Counted from the first letter of the stretch, positions 1-54,297 are shown. The stretch is 54,297 nt of DNA from Deltaproteobacteria bacterium (GCA_040218735.1 JAVJQW010000036.1:1-54297); one strand, 5' to 3'. Numbers and translations are program-made. The notes: a model not told the origin generated them from the sequence alone.

Positions 1-1
1 G

Positions 2-577
2 AGCGGTAACGATCGCGTCGAGGCGACGACGCCCGACACGTTCGCTTCTCGCTTCGACGGGAGCGCCGAAGCGAAGGCGCTCTTGGATCGAGCCAAAGAG
101 CTCACCCCGCCTGGGACGGACATCGGAGAGATCTTCGAAGCCGCGCTCGCGCTGTACGTCGAGAAGCTGGAGAGGAGGAAGAACGGAAAGACGAGTCGTC
201 CGCGATCGAAACCCGCCGACGATGCGCCGGCGGGCGCAGCGTACGTCCCGGCGGCAACGCGGCGCGCGGTGGTCGAGCGCGACGGCGCGCAGTGCACGTA
301 CGTGAGCCCGGACGGTCGGCGATGCAGCGAACGGTCGAACCTCGAATTCGATCACGTGGGCGGGCGTACGCTGGGCGCCGGGAGCGTGGTCGGCGAGCTC
401 CGCTTGCTGTGTCGCGCGCACAACCTTAACGCGGCGCGGGAGGTGTTGGGTCACGCCCTCATCGATCGGAGGATTCACGGGCGCCGCTCCACCCGGACCA
501 GGCCAGGCTCGATTCCGGAGCCTACTCGGCCTGAAACGCATCCGACGCCGCCGGCACGCGCGGAGGGCAGTTCGTGA
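2..577 (+). CDS. HNH endonuclease-domain protein, N-terminally truncated
   Basis: Frame is open from base 2 (SGNDRVEATTPDTF...). It carries PAATRRAVVERDGAQC...GRRC...LEFDH...LRLLCRAHN, a Zn/HNH signature, and is near-identical to the right-end ORF. Confidence 0.85.
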   Translation, partial: SGNDRVEATTPDTFASRFDGSAEAKALLDRAKELTPPGTDIGEIFEAALALYVEKLERRKNGKTSRPRSKPADDAPAGAAYVPAATRRAVVERDGAQCTYVSPDGRRCSERSNLEFDHVGGRTLGAGSVVGELRLLCRAHNLNAAREVLGHALIDRRIHGRRSTRTRPGSIPEPTRPETHPTPPARAEGSS

Positions 578-773
578 GAGCGATACCAGCCGATGTTCGA
601 GAGCGCGGCCCTCCTTCGGAGCACTGCGCTCCGCGGACCCCCTCCCTCACCAGCCCGGCGAAACGGCGCACGTGGGACGAGTCGCTCCGCGTCGCCGGCG
701 CGCTGCCTTCCATCGAGGCGCCCCTCGCCGCCTGATGGGGGCTCGAGGCAGGCCCGTCCGCTAAGTGAACGGC
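539..773 (+). ncRNA. Putative structured RNA or cis element overlapping and following the HNH gene 3' end
   Basis: About 22 mismatches in 196 nt (578..773, hand count) versus the right copy. Stems at 601-608/624-631 (inner CTCC-TTC-GGAG), 632-637/686-691, 703-708/746-751 and 756-770; some substitutions keep pairing as G-U. Confidence 0.45.
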
Positions 774-781
774 ATTGCTTT

Positions 782-948
782 TAGGCCATAACGCCGCTCC
801 GCTTCGCGAACCGCCTTGGCACAGTCTTCGGACCGGCCGCACTCGCGACCGGCCGCAGCCTAGACCATAACGCCGCTCCGCTGCGCGGACCGCCTTGGCA
901 CAGTCTTCGGACCGGCCGCATTCGCGACCGGCCGCATTCGCAGCCTAG
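782..948. repeat. Two tandem ~79-85 bp hairpin-rich units bounded by TAG
   Basis: Unit 1 is 782-860 and unit 2 is 861-945; both begin TAGRCCATAACGCCGCTCCGCT and contain GTC-TTCG-GAC and an internal GACCGGCCGCAYTCGC sub-repeat; final TAG at 946-948. Confidence 0.95.
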
Positions 949-1949
949 CCCGCTACCCAGAGGATCGTCACCAGCGTCACGATGAACACCCCCACGCCGA
1001 TCAGCACGGCGACGGCGGTCGACATCGGCTTCGCGGCCGGCTCGGGGAGCGGGTTCGTGCGGGGGACCGGCGCCTCGGCGGGGTCGATGCTCCCGGGGAT
1101 GGCGCTCGTCTCGACCGGGAACGGCTTCCGCACCGGCGGGAGCGTCATCTGCGTGTCCTCGTCGTCGAGGTTGAACGCGGAGCGGTCGCGGATGAACGTG
1201 TCCGCGAAGGGATCCACGTCGTCGCCCGGCACCGCACCGAACGTGGAGATCGCGGGGCGGTCGTCGGGCGGCTCGGCGTCATCGACCGTCGGCGGCTCCT
1301 GCACACGCGTGGGCGCCTCCGCTTCCGAGCGCTCCTGCACCGGGACAGCGCCGAGGTCCTTCGCGACCTTCTGCATCTCGGCGAGGCGCACGCCCATGAT
1401 GGTGGAATCGAGCTCGAGGTTCTGGAGCGTGGCGCGGACGGCGTCGATCGTCTTCGGCCTCCGGCCGGGCGCCTTCGTGAGGAGCTTCTGCACCAGCGCG
1501 TCGAGCTCCGGCGGGACGTCCTGGAGCGCATTGGCGACGAGGGACGCCGGCGCCTCTTCGATCTGCTGGCGCAGCACCTCTTCGTGCGTCGCTCCGGCGA
1601 AGACCGGCTGCCCGGTGATGACGTGGTGGAGCAGCAGCCCGACGGCGTAGATGTCGGTGCGCGCGGTCGCGACACCCCCGCGCGCGACCTCCGGAGCCGT
1701 GTACCCGGGCGGCGGCACGTCGGCGGGGTCGAGCACGACGCTGAGCGTGTTGCCGAGGTGGTGGAACCGGACCGCGCCGGGGTGAATGGCCCCGTGGATC
1801 TGCCCGGCGCCGTGGATGCCGCTGAGGATCTCGCAGAGGCGGTCCACGATCTTGACCGCCTGCGACAGCGGGACCGGTCCGCGCTCCAGCGCCTTCGTGA
1901 GCGGCTCGAGCGGCGCGTGCGGCGCCCGGCCCTGCCCTGCGGCCGTCAT
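945..1949 (-). CDS. Degenerate Ser/Thr kinase-like (pseudokinase) membrane protein
   Basis: C-lobe motifs YTAPE and TDIYAVG are present, but HGAIHP replaces HRDLKP, DFG and the N-lobe are missing; C-terminal TM helix. Confidence 0.75.
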   Translation of the reverse strand: MTAAGQGRAPHAPLEPLTKALERGPVPLSQAVKIVDRLCEILSGIHGAGQIHGAIHPGAVRFHHLGNTLSVVLDPADVPPPGYTAPEVARGGVATARTDIYAVGLLLHHVITGQPVFAGATHEEVLRQQIEEAPASLVANALQDVPPELDALVQKLLTKAPGRRPKTIDAVRATLQNLELDSTIMGVRLAEMQKVAKDLGAVPVQERSEAEAPTRVQEPPTVDDAEPPDDRPAISTFGAVPGDDVDPFADTFIRDRSAFNLDDEDTQMTLPPVRKPFPVETSAIPGSIDPAEAPVPRTNPLPEPAAKPMSTAVAVLIGVGVFIVTLVTILWVAG

Positions 1950-19845: not shown

Positions 19846-21257
19846 GGCGCGCGCTGGTCGCCGCCCTGCTCCTCGTCGCGGCGTGCCGCTACGAGAAGCC
19901 GCTCAGCCCGGTCCTCGGCTACGAGCGCGACGACATCGCGTGCTCGGACGGCATCGACAACGACCGCGACGGCCTGACCGACTGCGACGACGGCGACTGC
20001 CTGGAGGTCGCCGGACACTGCGGCGACATCATCCCTCTCGCGCCGTTCTTCGAACGCGAGAACGATCTGCTCGTCTGCCGCGACAACATCGACAACGACG
20101 ACAACGGGCAGTTCGACTGCGGTGACCGCAAGTGCCAGGCGATCCCGGAGGCCTGCTGCAACACCGAGTTCACGAACGAGCTCTGCAGCGACGGCATCGA
20201 CAACGACGGTAACAACTTCATCGACTGCTTCGACTTCGGGTGCTCGCGCGGGATCTTCGTGTCGGTCTGCGGCTTCTCCGAGGAGACGGACATCGCGTGC
20301 CGCGACGGCATCGACAACGACAGCGACGGCCTGACCGACTGCGACGACGTCTTCGCCAACGGCGAGATCAACTGCGGGAGCTTCGAGGTCTGCTTCGAGA
20401 ACTGCGCCGACGGGATCGACAACAACGGCAACGGCCGCATCGACTGCGAGGACACCGCGTACTGCGTGGGAACGCAGGCCTGCAAAGTCGACGAGAACAC
20501 GATCGAGCTGTGCTCGGACGGCGCGGACAACGACGCCGATCAGTTCACCGACTGCGAAGACGTGGACTGTAGCGGAGCGGGCGCGGCGGCGGAGCAGTTC
20601 TGCATCGGACGCCGCGAGGACACACTCGCCAACTGCTCCGACGGCATCGACAACGACAACAACGGCTTCACCGACTGCGTCGACCGCTCGTGCTCACGGA
20701 GCATGGACCAGACGATCCTCGACTACTGCGCGTCGCTCCCTTCGGAGACGACCGTCGAGACCTGCAGCAACGGGATCGACGACGACGCCAACGGGTTCAC
20801 GGACTGCGGTGACTTCTCCTGCTCGCGCAGCACGGACCCGGCGGTCGCGGCGCTGTGCCCCTCGGAGGACACCCCCGAGACGTGCAGTGACGGCATCGAC
20901 AACGACAGCAACGGGTTCACCGACTGCAACGACTTCTCGTGCTCGCGCAGCGACGACCCGGCGGTGCTCGCGGTCTGCACGTTCGAGAACACGTTCGAGC
21001 TGTGCAAGGACGGCATCGACAACGACGGCAACGGCTTCACGGACTGCGAGGACTTCTCGTGCTCGAGCCCGACGCAGGCCACGGACGCGACGCGCCTCGC
21101 CTGTCAGGAGGCGGTGGGCAGCCCCTCGCAGCTGAACGCCTACTGCTCCGACGGCATCGACAACGATCAGGATGGCGTCACCGACTGCGACGACTTCGAC
21201 TGCTCGCGGCACCCCTTCGTGACCGCGTGCGACGACAAACCACTGGTGTGTGAGTAA
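19842..21257 (+). CDS. Lipoprotein with 11 Cys/Asp-rich C-x-DGIDNDxxGxxDC repeats
   Basis: Lipobox LVAAC; 11 repeats counted; GTGA overlap with the nuclease stop. Confidence 0.88.
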   Translation: MRRALVAALLLVAACRYEKPLSPVLGYERDDIACSDGIDNDRDGLTDCDDGDCLEVAGHCGDIIPLAPFFERENDLLVCRDNIDNDDNGQFDCGDRKCQAIPEACCNTEFTNELCSDGIDNDGNNFIDCFDFGCSRGIFVSVCGFSEETDIACRDGIDNDSDGLTDCDDVFANGEINCGSFEVCFENCADGIDNNGNGRIDCEDTAYCVGTQACKVDENTIELCSDGADNDADQFTDCEDVDCSGAGAAAEQFCIGRREDTLANCSDGIDNDNNGFTDCVDRSCSRSMDQTILDYCASLPSETTVETCSNGIDDDANGFTDCGDFSCSRSTDPAVAALCPSEDTPETCSDGIDNDSNGFTDCNDFSCSRSDDPAVLAVCTFENTFELCKDGIDNDGNGFTDCEDFSCSSPTQATDATRLACQEAVGSPSQLNAYCSDGIDNDQDGVTDCDDFDCSRHPFVTACDDKPLVCE

Positions 21258-21260
21258 TCA

Positions 21261-22844
21261 ATGAGTACGGGATGGACGACGACGGCGGCGTTTCTCTGCA
21301 TGTGCGCCCTGGCGACACCGAGTGTCGCGTGGGCTGCCGACAAAGAGACCAATTGCTCGGACCGCATCGACGAGGACCAAGACACGGTCACCGACTGCGC
21401 CGACGCGGATTGTTACGACGACCCGGTCTGCAAGACGGCGGGGGGCCTCGAGAACTCGGACGTCCTGTGCAGCGACGCGATCGACAACGACGGTGACGGC
21501 GCGGTCGACTGCGAAGACGCGGACTGCGAATCGGCGGCGGTGAAGGTGTGCCAGGGCTCCTGGGAGGGCCCGCTCGGCGGCACCGGCATCGCGTCGACCG
21601 GCGGCAACACCGGTGAGCAGCCGCTCCCCGAGCTCGCGCCGGGTCAGTCGCTCGAAGACCTGATCGGCACCGGCGGTGACGTCGACGGCGAGCGCAACGA
21701 CTTCGTCTGCTCGGACGGCCTCGACAACGACGGCGACGGCGCGATCGACTGCGCCGACATCGGCTGCCGCTTCGATCCGAACGTGAACGTCTGCCGCAGC
21801 TCGCCGGGGATCCGGTTCACGTTCGCCGCGCACGTGCGGTCGAGCTACGAGTACTGCAAGGGCAACCAGTGCACGGACGCCACGTCCGTCGACCCCCGCA
21901 ACGAGACGTACGACACCTTCGACACCCGCGTGAACCGCATCCAGCTCCGTGCCCTCGGGCCGGTGCCGTTCATCCAGGATTCGTTCTTCCTCATCTCGAT
22001 GCGCGCCGAGCGCTCGCCGCGCCTGACGTTCGCGATGTTCTCGATGCCCATCGGCGGCGGCCACTACCTCAACATCAACAGCGGCGGCGGCGGCCTCTCG
22101 AACGGCCTCGTGCTGTCGGTGTCGAAGAACATCCTCCTCGACCCGCCCTTCTACCTGTACTCCGCCTTCGAGGCCGGTAACGGTGCGGCGGTCGAGGTCA
22201 ACGGCCCGCTCGTCTACGGCCTGCTCGACTACCGCGTCTTCGCGGCCGGCGGGTCCGGGCGCTTCTCGGGCGTGGTCGGCGGCAACTTCTTCAACAACGA
22301 GGACCGCAATTACACGTACGGTGTCGGCGGCCAGCTCGCGCTGTACGCGATGGGCCGCTTCGACCGTTGGGACACCCGCTTCCTCTACACACCGGTGCCG
22401 CGCGCGCTGACGCTCTACGCGGGTGGTCGCTACGACCAGCGCGACGACGAGCGCTACCCCGCGATGAACATCGCGGCGCTGTTCCGCTGGGGGCACTTCG
22501 AGCTGATCGGCGAGACCTACGGTAAACGCGAGCTCAACTTCGACACGTGGCAGCTGTCCTACAACATCCAGGCGGGTCTGCTCGTCATCCCCAAGTGGCT
22601 CTTCCTCGCGGCCGACTTCGGACAGTTCTACGCGACGGAGTTCGACGACGACGTCGAGCTCACCTCCGAGCTACGCCGCATCGTCGACGAGACCCAGGCC
22701 CGCTTCGCCGCGCACATGTACGTCTGGCGCAACGTGGGGCTCGTCTCGTTCCTCTACACGTACCGATTCGTGGAGGCGGCGATCGACACGCGCGACAACC
22801 TCTACAGCCACGAGTTCCGCGTCGAGACGCAGTTCCGCTTCTGA
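21261..22844 (+). CDS. Outer-membrane porin-like protein with 3 N-terminal Cys/Asp repeats
   Basis: Signal peptide, 3 repeats, aromatic-rich beta region ending VETQFRF. Confidence 0.8.
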   Translation: MSTGWTTTAAFLCMCALATPSVAWAADKETNCSDRIDEDQDTVTDCADADCYDDPVCKTAGGLENSDVLCSDAIDNDGDGAVDCEDADCESAAVKVCQGSWEGPLGGTGIASTGGNTGEQPLPELAPGQSLEDLIGTGGDVDGERNDFVCSDGLDNDGDGAIDCADIGCRFDPNVNVCRSSPGIRFTFAAHVRSSYEYCKGNQCTDATSVDPRNETYDTFDTRVNRIQLRALGPVPFIQDSFFLISMRAERSPRLTFAMFSMPIGGGHYLNINSGGGGLSNGLVLSVSKNILLDPPFYLYSAFEAGNGAAVEVNGPLVYGLLDYRVFAAGGSGRFSGVVGGNFFNNEDRNYTYGVGGQLALYAMGRFDRWDTRFLYTPVPRALTLYAGGRYDQRDDERYPAMNIAALFRWGHFELIGETYGKRELNFDTWQLSYNIQAGLLVIPKWLFLAADFGQFYATEFDDDVELTSELRRIVDETQARFAAHMYVWRNVGLVSFLYTYRFVEAAIDTRDNLYSHEFRVETQFRF

Positions 22845-44705: not shown

Positions 44706-46130
44706 TCAGTCCGGCGAGAAGCAGTACAGGTGCGCGCGTCCGGCGGCGCAGGCGGCGGAGGTCCAGTCACACCCCACGCTCTGGCCGCTGTTCCAGCGCC
44801 CCTGCCCGCCCATCGCGCCGGCGTTCGCGCTGCCGGCGCTGCCCATCTCGTTTTCGTCGCTGGTGGTCCAGGCCTGGCAGTCGACGCCGGTCGGGTTGCC
44901 GTTGGCGTCCGAGCCCGTGAAGACCGTGTTGGCGTTGACGACGTCGATGGTGTCGCCCCGCTCGGTGCGGACGTTCTCGAACAGCACGTTGTTGTCGTGC
45001 AGCAGCTGCACACAGTCTTGGCCCTTGTTGCAGAACACGATCGGGTCACCCGCGGCGTCGTTCCAGGGGCCGAGGCCGATGCGGTCGCGTGCCGCCGTGC
45101 CGGTGATCGACAGGTAGGCCACCCAGGTCTTGTTGCCGACACCGGCGGCGTCGGCGAGGCCCTGACAGAAGGCATCCGCGCCGACGAGACCGCCGAAGTT
45201 CCCGGCCTCGATCACGTTGCCGACGCTCGACACGAAGAACGTCATGTCCGGCGACGCCGTGAAGCTGCGGCAGTCCACCGCGGTCGCGCCGTTGCGGTCG
45301 TAGGTGCACCGTTCCGTCGTCGCACACGCCGCGCCGCACACGCCGCCGCACCCGTCGGGTCCGCAGGCTCGTCCGTCGCACTGCGGTTGGCAGTCCGGCT
45401 CGCAGGAGCACAGCCCGGCGGGCGAGCAGATCAGCTGCGCGTTGGCGTTCGCCGGGCAGAACCCACAGCACCCGTCGTCGCTGCACTCGGCGCCGTCGCA
45501 CATGCAGTCTTCGCACATGCCCATCGCGTTGCAGCGGTTCTCGGCGGGGCAGTCGCCGCACGAGCCGCCGCAGCCGTCGTCGCCGCAGACGCGCCCCGTG
45601 CAGTCGGGCGTGCAGACCTCGCACATCCCCATCTCATTGCAGATCTCCCCCGGGTCGCAGTCGGGTCCGCACTGCGTGTCACACGAGAAGCCGCACTCAC
45701 GCCCGGTGCAGTCCGCGACGCATAGGCACTGGCCGTTCGCGTCGCACTGCAGCGGCGCGTCGCACATCCCGCAGGAGCCGCCGCACCCGTCGTCGCCGCA
45801 GAAGCGACCTTCGCAGTCGGGGAGGCAGTCGACGCAGCGCCCCTCGGGTGAGCAGAACGGGGTCGGCGCGGAGCACGCGCCGCAGGAGCCGCCGCACCCG
45901 TCGTCCCCGCAGGTCATGGTCGTGCAGTCGGGGGTGCACGCGGGGAGGCAAGCGCCGGTGACGCCGCAGACTTCGCCCAGCGCGCAGGCGCCGCAGGAGC
46001 CCCCACACCCGTCGGCGCCGCAGGTGCGTGTCCCACAGTCGGGGGTGCATTCGGTGGGCGCCGGGGCGTTGTACTGGGGGAGCTCGGAGCACCCGCACAC
46101 CAGCGCGAAGAGGAGGAGAACACGCCGCAC
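44706..46130 (-). CDS. Cys-rich repeat lipoprotein with C-terminal DUF1554/collagen-NC1-like domain
   Basis: About 7 CxPDCxGRxCGDDGCGGSCGxC-type repeats; GNFGGLVGADAFCQ...WVAYLS...LYCF. Confidence 0.82.
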   Translation of the reverse strand: MRRVLLLFALVCGCSELPQYNAPAPTECTPDCGTRTCGADGCGGSCGACALGEVCGVTGACLPACTPDCTTMTCGDDGCGGSCGACSAPTPFCSPEGRCVDCLPDCEGRFCGDDGCGGSCGMCDAPLQCDANGQCLCVADCTGRECGFSCDTQCGPDCDPGEICNEMGMCEVCTPDCTGRVCGDDGCGGSCGDCPAENRCNAMGMCEDCMCDGAECSDDGCCGFCPANANAQLICSPAGLCSCEPDCQPQCDGRACGPDGCGGVCGAACATTERCTYDRNGATAVDCRSFTASPDMTFFVSSVGNVIEAGNFGGLVGADAFCQGLADAAGVGNKTWVAYLSITGTAARDRIGLGPWNDAAGDPIVFCNKGQDCVQLLHDNNVLFENVRTERGDTIDVVNANTVFTGSDANGNPTGVDCQAWTTSDENEMGSAGSANAGAMGGQGRWNSGQSVGCDWTSAACAAGRAHLYCFSPD

Positions 46131-53370: not shown

Positions 53371-53384
53371 ACGTGGTCTAGACG
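53365..53384. repeat. GTCTAGACG direct duplication (11-bp period) at the element boundary
   Basis: Copies at 53365-53373 and 53376-53384; the first contains the MATE TAG stop. Confidence 0.85.
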
Positions 53385-53387
53385 GAG

Positions 53388-53622
53388 GCCGTTCACTTAG
53401 CGGACAGGCCTGCCTCGAGCACCGATCAGGCGGCAATAGGCCCCTCGACGTAGGGCAGCGCGCCGACGCCGCGGAGCGACTCGTCCCTCGGCCGCCGTTT
53501 CGCCGGGCTGGTGAAGGCGGGGGCCCGCGGAGCGCAGTGCTCCGAAGGAGGGCCGCACTCTCGAGCACCGGCTGGTATCGGTCTCACGAACTGCCCTCCG
53601 CGCGTGCCGGCGTCGTCGGATG
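53388..53622 (-). ncRNA. Putative structured RNA or cis element, right copy
   Basis: Gap-free homolog of 539..773 with the same predicted stems. Confidence 0.45.
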
Positions 53623-54297
53623 CCCTTCACGCCGAGGACGCTCGGGACACACGTCTTGCCTGGGCAGGGTAGAGCGGCGCTCGTGGATCCTCCGATCGAC
53701 GAGGGCGCGACCCAACACCTCCCGCGCCGCGTGAAGGTTGTGCGCGCGACACAGTAATCGCAGCTCGCCGACTACGCTCTTGGCCCCCAGCGCGCGGCCG
53801 CCCACGTGATCGAATTCGAGGTTCGACCGTTCGCTGCATCGCCGACCTTCCGGGCTCACGTAGGTGCACTGCGCGCCGTCGCGCTCCACCACCGCGCGGC
53901 GCGTTGCCGCCGGGACGTACGCTGCGCCCGCCGGCGCATCCTCGGCGGGTTTCGATCGCGGACGGCTCGTCTTTCCGTTCTTCCTCCTCTCCAGCTTCTC
54001 CACGTAGAGCGCGAGCGCCGCTTCGAAGATCTCCCCGATGTCCGTCCCGGGTGGGGTGAGCTCCTTGGCTCGATCCAACAGCGCCTTGGCTTCGGCGCTC
54101 CCGTCGAAGTGAAAAGCGAACGTGTCGGGCGTCGCCGCCTCGACGCGATCGTCACTGCTCTTCGCGCCGGGGAACTCGGTGGCGATGAGCATCTCGACCT
54201 CGGCCTTGGACTTGTTCCGCGCCTGCTCGACGAGGCTGTGGGCGTTGTCGTCGTTCATGAACTTCGAGAGCTTCGCGACGCCCGTCATGTGCAGCTC
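53584..54297 (-). CDS. HNH endonuclease-domain protein, N-terminally truncated by the window edge
   Basis: Frame is open to the end (ELHMTGVAKL...ARNKSKAEVEMLIA), followed by the same HNH domain as the left copy. Confidence 0.88.
   Translation of the reverse strand, partial: ELHMTGVAKLSKFMNDDNAHSLVEQARNKSKAEVEMLIATEFPGAKSSDDRVEAATPDTFAFHFDGSAEAKALLDRAKELTPPGTDIGEIFEAALALYVEKLERRKNGKTSRPRSKPAEDAPAGAAYVPAATRRAVVERDGAQCTYVSPEGRRCSERSNLEFDHVGGRALGAKSVVGELRLLCRAHNLHAAREVLGRALVDRRIHERRSTLPRQDVCPERPRREGHPTTPARAEGSS

Follow-up and report, generated by a model that had tools for sequence, protein, structure and literature searches.

The window analysed here, a stretch of 54,297 nucleotides (nt) that makes up the entire contig C14 of a deltaproteobacterial genome (G000; 11.6 Mb, 70 contigs, about 70% GC), begins and ends inside copies of the same multicopy element, whose single gene encodes an HNH protein of 320 amino acids (aa). 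The full element measures 1,795 bp end to end, carries terminal inverted repeats, and is flanked by 10-bp target-site duplications. Both copies that bound the window have their right ends facing inward, with 52.6 kb between them, and their left parts run off the contig; the left end of the copy at the start of the window (copy A) lies on a different contig. The features of copy A and of the copy at the end of the window (copy B) are the following.

1..777, plus strand: copy A, comprising 777 nt from the right side of the 1,795-bp element (about 1018-1795 in element coordinates), truncated by the contig start
2..577, plus strand: gene part of copy A, the C-terminal 191 codons and the stop codon (575-577) of the 320-aa HNH protein
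about 227-460, plus strand: HNH domain of copy A, with the codon of the catalytic His247 at 353-355
about 470-574, plus strand: last ~35 codons of copy A, a predicted disordered tail in nearly neutral evolution
578..756, plus strand: 3' non-coding part of copy A, diverging at about 0.6-1x the synonymous rate, without codon periodicity and without covariation
757..777, plus strand: right terminal inverted repeat of copy A, TCCGCTAAGTGAACGGCATTG, the exact complement of the left-end consensus
778..787, no strand: target 10-mer beside copy A, CTTTTAGGCC, with TTAG central, the expected right-hand copy of the target-site duplication
53384..54297, minus strand: copy B, comprising ~914 nt from the right side of another, inverted copy, truncated by the contig end
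53584..54297, minus strand: gene part of copy B, the C-terminal 237 codons and the stop codon with no internal stop; 53587-54297 encode residues 84-320
53384..53404, minus strand: right terminal inverted repeat of copy B, matching the consensus at 18/21 positions, with all three changes within the outer 4 bases

Positions 1-773 and 53388-54160 form a gapless inverted repeat with 700 of 773 positions identical (90.6%), in agreement with a preliminary description of this DNA. Identity between the two copies is 441/475 in 1-475 and 47/63 in 476-538; it returns from about 539 (38/39 in 539-577), and holds at the reported level of about 89% past the stop codon (174/196 in 578-773), before falling to 6/27 in 774-800. 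The partial proteins differ at 24 of 191 residues, with the 12 differences in the last 33 residues already counted in that description; its figure of about 7 in about 130 core residues is also roughly right, given 12 in the first 158. The sharp end that it placed at 773 is the boundary formed by the right inverted repeat (757-777) and the target that follows it (778-787), and pairing of the two copies stops at 773 because the right repeat of copy B is degenerate in its outer bases.

Ends, target sites and copy number of the element

The full length of the element was established by extending two internal copies, on contigs C33 and C29 of G000, in which the repeat continues about 1 kb upstream of the part present in the window. 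Positions 1-800 of the window gave 51 matches in G000, and a full copy used as query gave 78 high-scoring segment pairs covering 49,995 aligned bases, or about 27.9 copy-equivalents, where the preliminary description had known of two copies. Many of these copies share sharp common ends and do not represent a simple two-copy segmental duplication. Identity among copies is about 90% and uniform along the whole unit. A total of 34 of the 140 contig ends in G000 fall inside an element copy; the element is therefore the main reason for the fragmentation of the assembly, and for the same reason the window is cut inside a copy at each end.

The terminal inverted repeats are 21 bp long and extend imperfectly to about 36 bp. 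Left ends open with CAATGCCGTTCACTTAGCGGA and right ends close with its exact complement; 20 left ends, 21 right ends and 3 unclassified sites were found in G000. The element occupies about 20 different sites, and the flanking DNA beyond its end differs at each. An identical 10-mer lies on both sides of the C29 copy, and the corresponding 10-mers at C33 match at 9 of 10 positions, which constitutes a 10-bp direct target-site duplication. When every left end was paired with every right end, four of 420 combinations matched at 9/10 or better in the 10-nt windows adjoining the ends, and none of the 420 did so in four shifted control windows. The matching pairs were C33 (both ends on one contig), C32/C45 (10/10), C58/C53 (10/10) and C48/C39 (9/10), the last three joining ends from different contigs. 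The target 10-mer is GC-rich with a central YTAR, mostly CTAG; among 41 ends, position -7 was C or T in 36, -6 was T in 30, -5 was A in 31, and -4 was G in 30.

Some insertion sites fall on the stop codons of neighbouring genes, as at C33, and others at the edge of a 79-nt dispersed repeat. The two convergent genes on either side of the C33 copy are separated by about 1 nt in a genome of the same genus, G001, with no element between them; the flanks in G001 are 78% identical to those in G000, so that insertion is shown but the exact empty site is not. The locus was found in sequencing runs of 8 studies, and none of 20 listed runs containing it was an RNA run. In one run, X2, contigs with flank differences of 43/3,030 and 36/2,026 (about 1.4-1.8%) extend 29 and 43 nt into the C33 copy from its two sides, and the C33 insertion is therefore common to a second strain. 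No contig joining both flanks of C33 was found among the contigs of four runs from four studies, and the 15 joints listed, out of 18, were rearrangements within repeats. Read depth over the element is far above that of the flanks and is there not a measure of copy number.

The 79-nt dispersed repeat itself has at least 16 near-full copies on 12 contigs of G000. Element copies on C4, C5, C14, C32, C46, C49 and C50 adjoin its edge, at a CCTAGG-like palindrome, and window positions 782-936 hold two tandem copies of it (95% alike) that start right in the element target. The repeat may serve as a favoured insertion target, or may itself be a small mobile element with the same type of target site. 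A separate rearranged copy of the element lies at G000:C21:192068-193554, truncated at its 5' side and with an internal deletion (element positions about 1587-1716); its right end is followed by a 20-nt spacer (CGCGACTGCACCACTAGCCC in contigs) and then by a 65-nt fragment of the element middle, a joint that recurs in contigs of all four sequencing runs compared.

The HNH gene, its product and its relatives

The element is laid out as a 631-nt non-coding leader, the single gene, and a 201-nt non-coding tail, and a promoter and terminator scan of the full copy gave 0 and 0 sites. The codon periodicity of diversity among copies was 3.2-11x at element positions 622-1461 and only 1.1-1.5x in the leader, the last ~35 codons and the tail. 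The element thus has a single gene, which encodes 320 aa counted from its ATG, and no second coding region. Across 10 pairs of five complete open reading frames (ORFs), the ratio of nonsynonymous (dN) to synonymous (dS) divergence was 0.25 (dN 0.048, dS 0.195); the three structured parts gave values of 0.17-0.22, and the tail 0.80. Just 4 of 49 protein matches in G000 contained an in-frame stop. These substitution patterns indicate that the HNH gene is under purifying selection. The preliminary description had recognized a multicopy selfish unit whose sole gene encodes an HNH protein and which has no recognizable transposase, and that view stands.

Sequence searches placed the protein only loosely. 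Pfam gave no match, including for PF02720 at E<=1, and the sole NCBIfam match was a weak one to IscB (NF040563) over the HNH part (residues 215-281; E 0.0023, 17.1 bits against a cut-off of 175); neither database assigned the gene to a transposase family. An HNH match was found in PHROGs (phrog_333, E 7.6e-5). A sequence search of the PDB at E<=1 returned nothing relevant, Foldseek gave no match to the PDB at E<=0.001 and weak McrA matches only, and PADLOC gave the protein no defence family. The catalytic His and the zinc ligands of the HNH domain are intact. Across 56 relatives, H247, C227 and C237 are invariant and D246, C266, H269 and N270 are conserved in at least 90%.

The structure predicted with AlphaFold2 (mean predicted local distance difference test score, pLDDT, 91.7) comprises a helical, DNA-binding-like part and an HNH part, without an RNase H-like part. 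Structural comparison with VIA-align matched residues ~17-129 to the DNA-binding domains of ParB, KorB and Spo0J (Z 5.8-7.0; best ParB match 6s6h_B, Z 7.0, root-mean-square deviation (rmsd) 3.0, 96 aligned, residues 19-126), residues ~143-191 to ribbon-helix-helix (RHH) proteins, namely RHH-type TraM and antitoxins (Z 5.0-5.3), and residues ~205-282 to HNH nucleases (Z 6.0-6.4), among them 5h0o_A (Z 6.4) and the HNH domain of IscB (9nvu_P, Z 6.0, rmsd 2.7, 60 aligned). As modelled, the protein would thus be composed of an N-terminal ParB/KorB-like DNA-binding domain, an RHH-like segment, an HNH nuclease and a disordered tail. It is also predicted to dimerize: the homodimer model scored 0.70 against 0.16 for the best control; of proteins solved as one-chain pairs, 20 of 30 attained that mark, and of those solved as single chains, 1 of 23. 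The homodimer runs showed at least 88% contact agreement with partner pLDDT of at least 79, and placed the interface at residues 140-189 (the RHH-like part) and the N-terminal helix.

The protein family is very large: E<=0.001 yields 15,427 representative clusters and E<=1e-30 yields 1,335, and source annotations of its members read McrA or HNH endonuclease. Among 20 relatives, PF01844 was matched at E<=0.01 in 18 and RuvA_C in 7, and three, from relatives 44-50% identical, gave sub-threshold DUF222 matches (17.2-20.3 bits against 24.4). DUF222 occurs in 23% of the members of one neighbour cluster in the ESM Atlas, and PF02720 had no match at E<=1 in the whole G000 genome. Of 41 related genomes, five contained the protein (1 to 49 matches per genome), a patchy distribution in which the gene is multicopy in most; no plasmid match was obtained with tblastn at 1e-5 among 72,556 records.

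Several relatives reside in units with repeats of their own, all of which were found by alignment; in a scan for 20-nt inverted repeats over 21 loci, the degenerate ends of C33 matched at 17/20, the same as noise. Seven distinct metagenomic elements, encoding proteins 35-37% identical to that of G000, share a ~150-nt terminal sequence that is present at 5 of 5 left ends and is unrelated to the repeats of the G000 element. An inverted right-end repeat is present in loci L113 (123 nt, 87%), L116 and L104; the repeats of L113 lie at 110-272 and 1716-1878, and the terminal repeats start with GGCTGATAGGGAGGGCGG, also in L104, L108, L110, L103 and L116. A 29-nt palindromic motif (ACTGTCGCTGGCG...CTGGCGACAGTGA) lies just inside each end in this clade. 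In another genome, G003 (L085-L090), six full or rearranged copies and shorter fragments of a 1.55-kb unit encoding a 386-aa relative show 98-100% identity, suggestive of a recent burst, and have a sharp right end (...GGGCCCTAG or CTAA). Genome G036 contains 63 matches, and the left ends of several of its HNH-unit subfamilies (L133, L134, L141, L147, L149, L155 and L157) share a ~35-nt hairpin-forming motif (CTCTCCCTCGCCCCGCGGAGCGGGGAGAGGGCCGGGG) that also occurs as a solitary sequence elsewhere in that genome. Copies in Candidatus Eisenbacteria, about 77% identical, look like a promoter, an HNH gene and a second ORF. No convincing flanking repeats were found at the single copy in G001 (49% identity) or at four other loci.

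The 3' region

The preliminary description had interpreted the last ~200 nt of the element as a specially conserved, structured RNA or hairpin comparable to the omega RNA of TnpB and to the HEARO RNAs that accompany HNH ORFs, with the sequence beyond 773 as a possible guide or target junction. Neutral divergence between copies is about 0.1-0.2. The divergence (p) among 11 copies was 0.09-0.15 in the 3' non-coding bins and 0.27 in one bin, the latter probably due to indels, against 0.152 at the third codon positions of the core ORF; bins of the leader gave 0.08-0.20 (6 copies). The divergence of the 3' region is thus about that of third positions, so the conservation seen in the window is a general property of young copies and reflects at most mild constraint, not a degree of conservation beyond that of neutral sites.

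On the plus strand the region has a minimum free energy (MFE) of -96.1 kcal/mol (z -1.87), and 8 of 200 shuffled sequences folded as well; on the minus strand z was -0.77, with 43 of 200 folding as well. RNAalifold applied to 22 copies (window 540-777) returned 52 consensus pairs with 0 compensatory changes and a covariation term of +1.79. When the MFE structure of the window was imposed on the 22-copy alignment, 88.1% of cells were paired against 87.9% in shuffles (89 of 500 as high), and six pairs were changed on both sides against 4.4 expected from shuffles (105/500). The covariation score was 0.062 against 0.054 in shuffles (4/500), an excess that relatedness alone can give. Of the consecutive stems described earlier, the hairpin at 601-631 is kept in most copies (90.8% of cells paired), but several pairs are missing from most copies, 136:152 and 174:207 each being standard in 3 of 22, and the fold as a whole is marginal relative to shuffles. 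Rfam gave 0 matches to the full copy at E<=1 and, for window 1-1000, 3 matches at E<=10, all far under their gathering scores.

The guide-RNA reading was rejected because no significant covariation was present in 22 copies, no Rfam match was found, and the terminal inverted repeats and target duplications are unlike ISC/IS605 elements. The proposed analogy to TnpB, IscB and HEARO is not supported either, in view of these repeats and duplications and of the IscB score of the protein. The sequence beyond the element end is ordinary flanking DNA, that is, the duplicated target followed by unrelated flank. The suggestion of a target junction was therefore correct, once moved from 773 to the end of the repeat at 777, and that of a guide was not, as each of the ~20 sites differs.

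The candidate mobility enzyme and competing explanations

On balance we favour, by a modest degree, an autonomous insertion sequence (IS)-like element whose own HNH protein is the mobility enzyme. The more specific proposal that the dimeric ParB-helix-turn-helix/RHH/HNH protein is itself a DNA transposase, which would be the first of the His-Me-finger (HNH) kind, is advanced more tentatively, as somewhat short of an even prospect. In such a mechanism, a symmetric protein dimer would bind the terminal inverted repeats, each of which contains a TTAG at a distance of about two helical turns from YTAR in the adjoining target. This dimer would cut at the element ends and, with a 10-nt stagger, around the palindromic target; either the enzyme itself or ligation and repair by the host would perform the joining, and the 10-bp duplication would result from gap filling. 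The 3' 200 nt would then serve as a DNA end, containing the inverted repeat and possible subterminal binding sites, rather than as a guide RNA.

G000 was searched for a helper or for other cargo carried between the same ends. All ~28 copy-equivalents in the 11.6 Mb contain the HNH gene or its deletion, and no other cargo was found between element ends. All 21-nt sites with at most 4 mismatches to the inverted-repeat consensus lie in the element, save two solitary sites with 4 mismatches each (C17:196917 and C54:102465), and a looser scan with 12-mer termini gave 630 matches outside known copies with no convincing pair among them, a result at the level of noise. DDE genes are represented by just 2 PF01609 and 2 rve matches; the PF01609 locus on C36, of IS4/IS5 type, has unrelated inverted repeats, and that on C57 has none resembling the element ends. 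No DDE partner with element ends was found in the assembly, which is 96.5% complete. One derivative of 975 bp retains both element ends and has no ORF, lacking positions 645-1464 (644 is joined to 1465). It is represented by one collapsed left part, at the end of C49, and two different right continuations and flanks, at the ends of C5 and C57, and the element ends can therefore be used in trans.

Several observations weigh against the HNH protein as the mobility enzyme. A DDE transposase is classically indicated by inverted repeats together with a duplication of fixed length, and we know of no HNH (His-Me finger) enzyme that carries out transposition. The central Asn of the family motif, in the consensus of 56 relatives, is Glu in the element protein. 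The structural matches are middling (Z 5-7), and such values may mean only a common arrangement. Trans action on the ends of the 975-bp derivative is equally expected of an unlinked helper, and a rare helper copy could be absent from an assembly that is 96.5% complete and breaks at repeats. Nothing shows current activity: the copies have diverged by about 0.1-0.2 at neutral sites, the C33 insertion is shared between strains, and no empty-site contig was found in the four runs. Among the relatives, L103, L108 and L110 gave no long right-hand repeat; the left ends in G003 are ragged and share different lengths of extra sequence, and the copies there showed no clean inverted repeats or duplications; and clean inverted repeats were found neither in the G036 units nor in the Candidatus Eisenbacteria copies.

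Some of these points would be accommodated by a non-autonomous element, in which an unlinked conventional transposase, for example of the DDE type, acts on the repeats and the HNH gene is a passenger useful to element or host in another way, for instance in addiction, defence or repair. The form of the ends and duplication, the trans use of the derivative's ends, and the existence of a few DDE genes in an incomplete assembly all agree with this explanation, which we regard as a substantial but less probable one. It would leave unexplained why no other cargo travels between such ends, and the DDE loci on C36 and C57 do not share them; purifying selection on the HNH gene in the copies is unexpected for a mere passenger, and the divergent relatives have their own different inverted repeats, as would be expected of ends that co-evolve with the protein. 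A homing- or restriction-like selfish nuclease, spreading through breaks and host repair or through the killing of losers, with a separate and extinct insertion process, is improbable. HNH domains are characteristic of nucleases of the homing and restriction kinds, McrA is among the best matches in Foldseek and VIA-align, relatives carry that name, and at about 10% divergence recent movement of the copies is not evident; but homing needs homologous flanks, whereas the element has ~20 different flanks, each with its own 10-bp duplication, and no defence family was assigned by PADLOC.

An RNA-associated nuclease of the TnpB/IscB type, with a structured 3' omega-RNA transcript and a guide beyond the end, is very unlikely. 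The slightly better plus-strand fold, the retained hairpin at 601-631 and the mildly lower divergence of the 3' bins relative to third codon positions are what it has in its favour, and against these stand the lack of compensatory pairs, the absence of an Rfam match or of a RuvC or PLMP part, and the presence of inverted repeats and duplications followed by unrelated flanks. Inert repeats without element-level function, kept alike by gene conversion or segmental duplication, might account for the uniform identity along the unit; the sharp ends shared by the copies, the inverted repeats, the 10-bp duplications specific to each site and the substitution pattern peculiar to the coding part speak against them, and we give this explanation almost no weight.

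With an autonomous HNH element as the favoured reading, comparison with known systems shows partial likeness to several. The REP13E12/DUF222-HNH genes of mycobacteria and other Actinobacteria (PF02720 and PF01844) are likewise multicopy single-gene units of ~1.4-1.8 kb, with a helical N-terminal part, a C-terminal HNH domain with intact catalytic His and zinc ligands, and a multicopy, patchy distribution. The element protein differs in its lack of a PF02720 match and is a distant relative at best; to our knowledge, REP13E12 has not been described as having terminal inverted repeats and target duplications. ISC and IS200-IS605 elements resemble the element as nuclease-encoding, transposase-less multicopy units, and its HNH domain resembles that of IscB. 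Those elements are described as having no terminal inverted repeats, no target duplication and insertion beside a 4-5 bp site, with subterminal hairpins for the Y1 transposase and a RuvC domain that acts with RNA (PMC4810608). The G000 element, in contrast, combines 21-bp inverted repeats with 10-bp duplications, lacks a RuvC or PLMP part and matches no RNA family. HNH homing endonuclease genes of phages and introns are similar as selfish HNH nuclease genes with sequence-specific DNA-binding modules, but enter one cognate allele through homologous flanks, whereas the element lies at ~20 unrelated sites with duplications of its own. The IS4 and IS5 families of DDE insertion sequences share its size of 1-2 kb, short terminal inverted repeats, fixed-length duplication, and deletion derivatives that resemble MITEs, miniature transposable elements with inverted repeats. 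A YTAR target preference is likewise found in IS5, which duplicates 4 bp; the element duplicates 10 bp and encodes no DDE or RNase H-fold protein. Only the 975-bp derivative, with both ends and no coding capacity, is MITE-like or non-autonomous in the usual sense, the full unit being coding.

In a search of full-text literature at title and abstract level, with subscription journals outside its coverage, no bacterial HNH-only element with terminal inverted repeats and target duplications was described, and the phrase 'HNH transposase' had no full-text match. The accepted prokaryotic transposase classes known to us are DDE, DEDD, HUH (Y1/Y2), serine, tyrosine and Cas1. If an HNH protein with two DNA-binding modules does move the element, this would represent a new transposition chemistry and a new family of bacterial insertion sequences, and would explain the spread of the very large DUF222-like HNH gene family, including the long-unexplained REP13E12-type repeats. 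G000 provides an unusually clean natural experiment in this respect, with ~28 copies, 21-bp ends, 10-bp duplications, a target motif and a non-coding derivative, which make the question of mobility directly testable.

Two further groups of repeats lie in the window between the element copies. Positions 19915-21768 contain twelve 87-nt coding repeats, 61-82% identical to the reference copy and spaced at 105-249 nt; they are rich in Cys and Asp codons (GACGGCATCGACAACGAC...GACTGC) and belong to a large repeat protein. Positions 45334-46065 contain four to five copies of a repeat spaced at 111 nt (CCGCA...CCGCCGCA...CAGTC), probably encoding a Cys-rich repeat protein on the minus strand.

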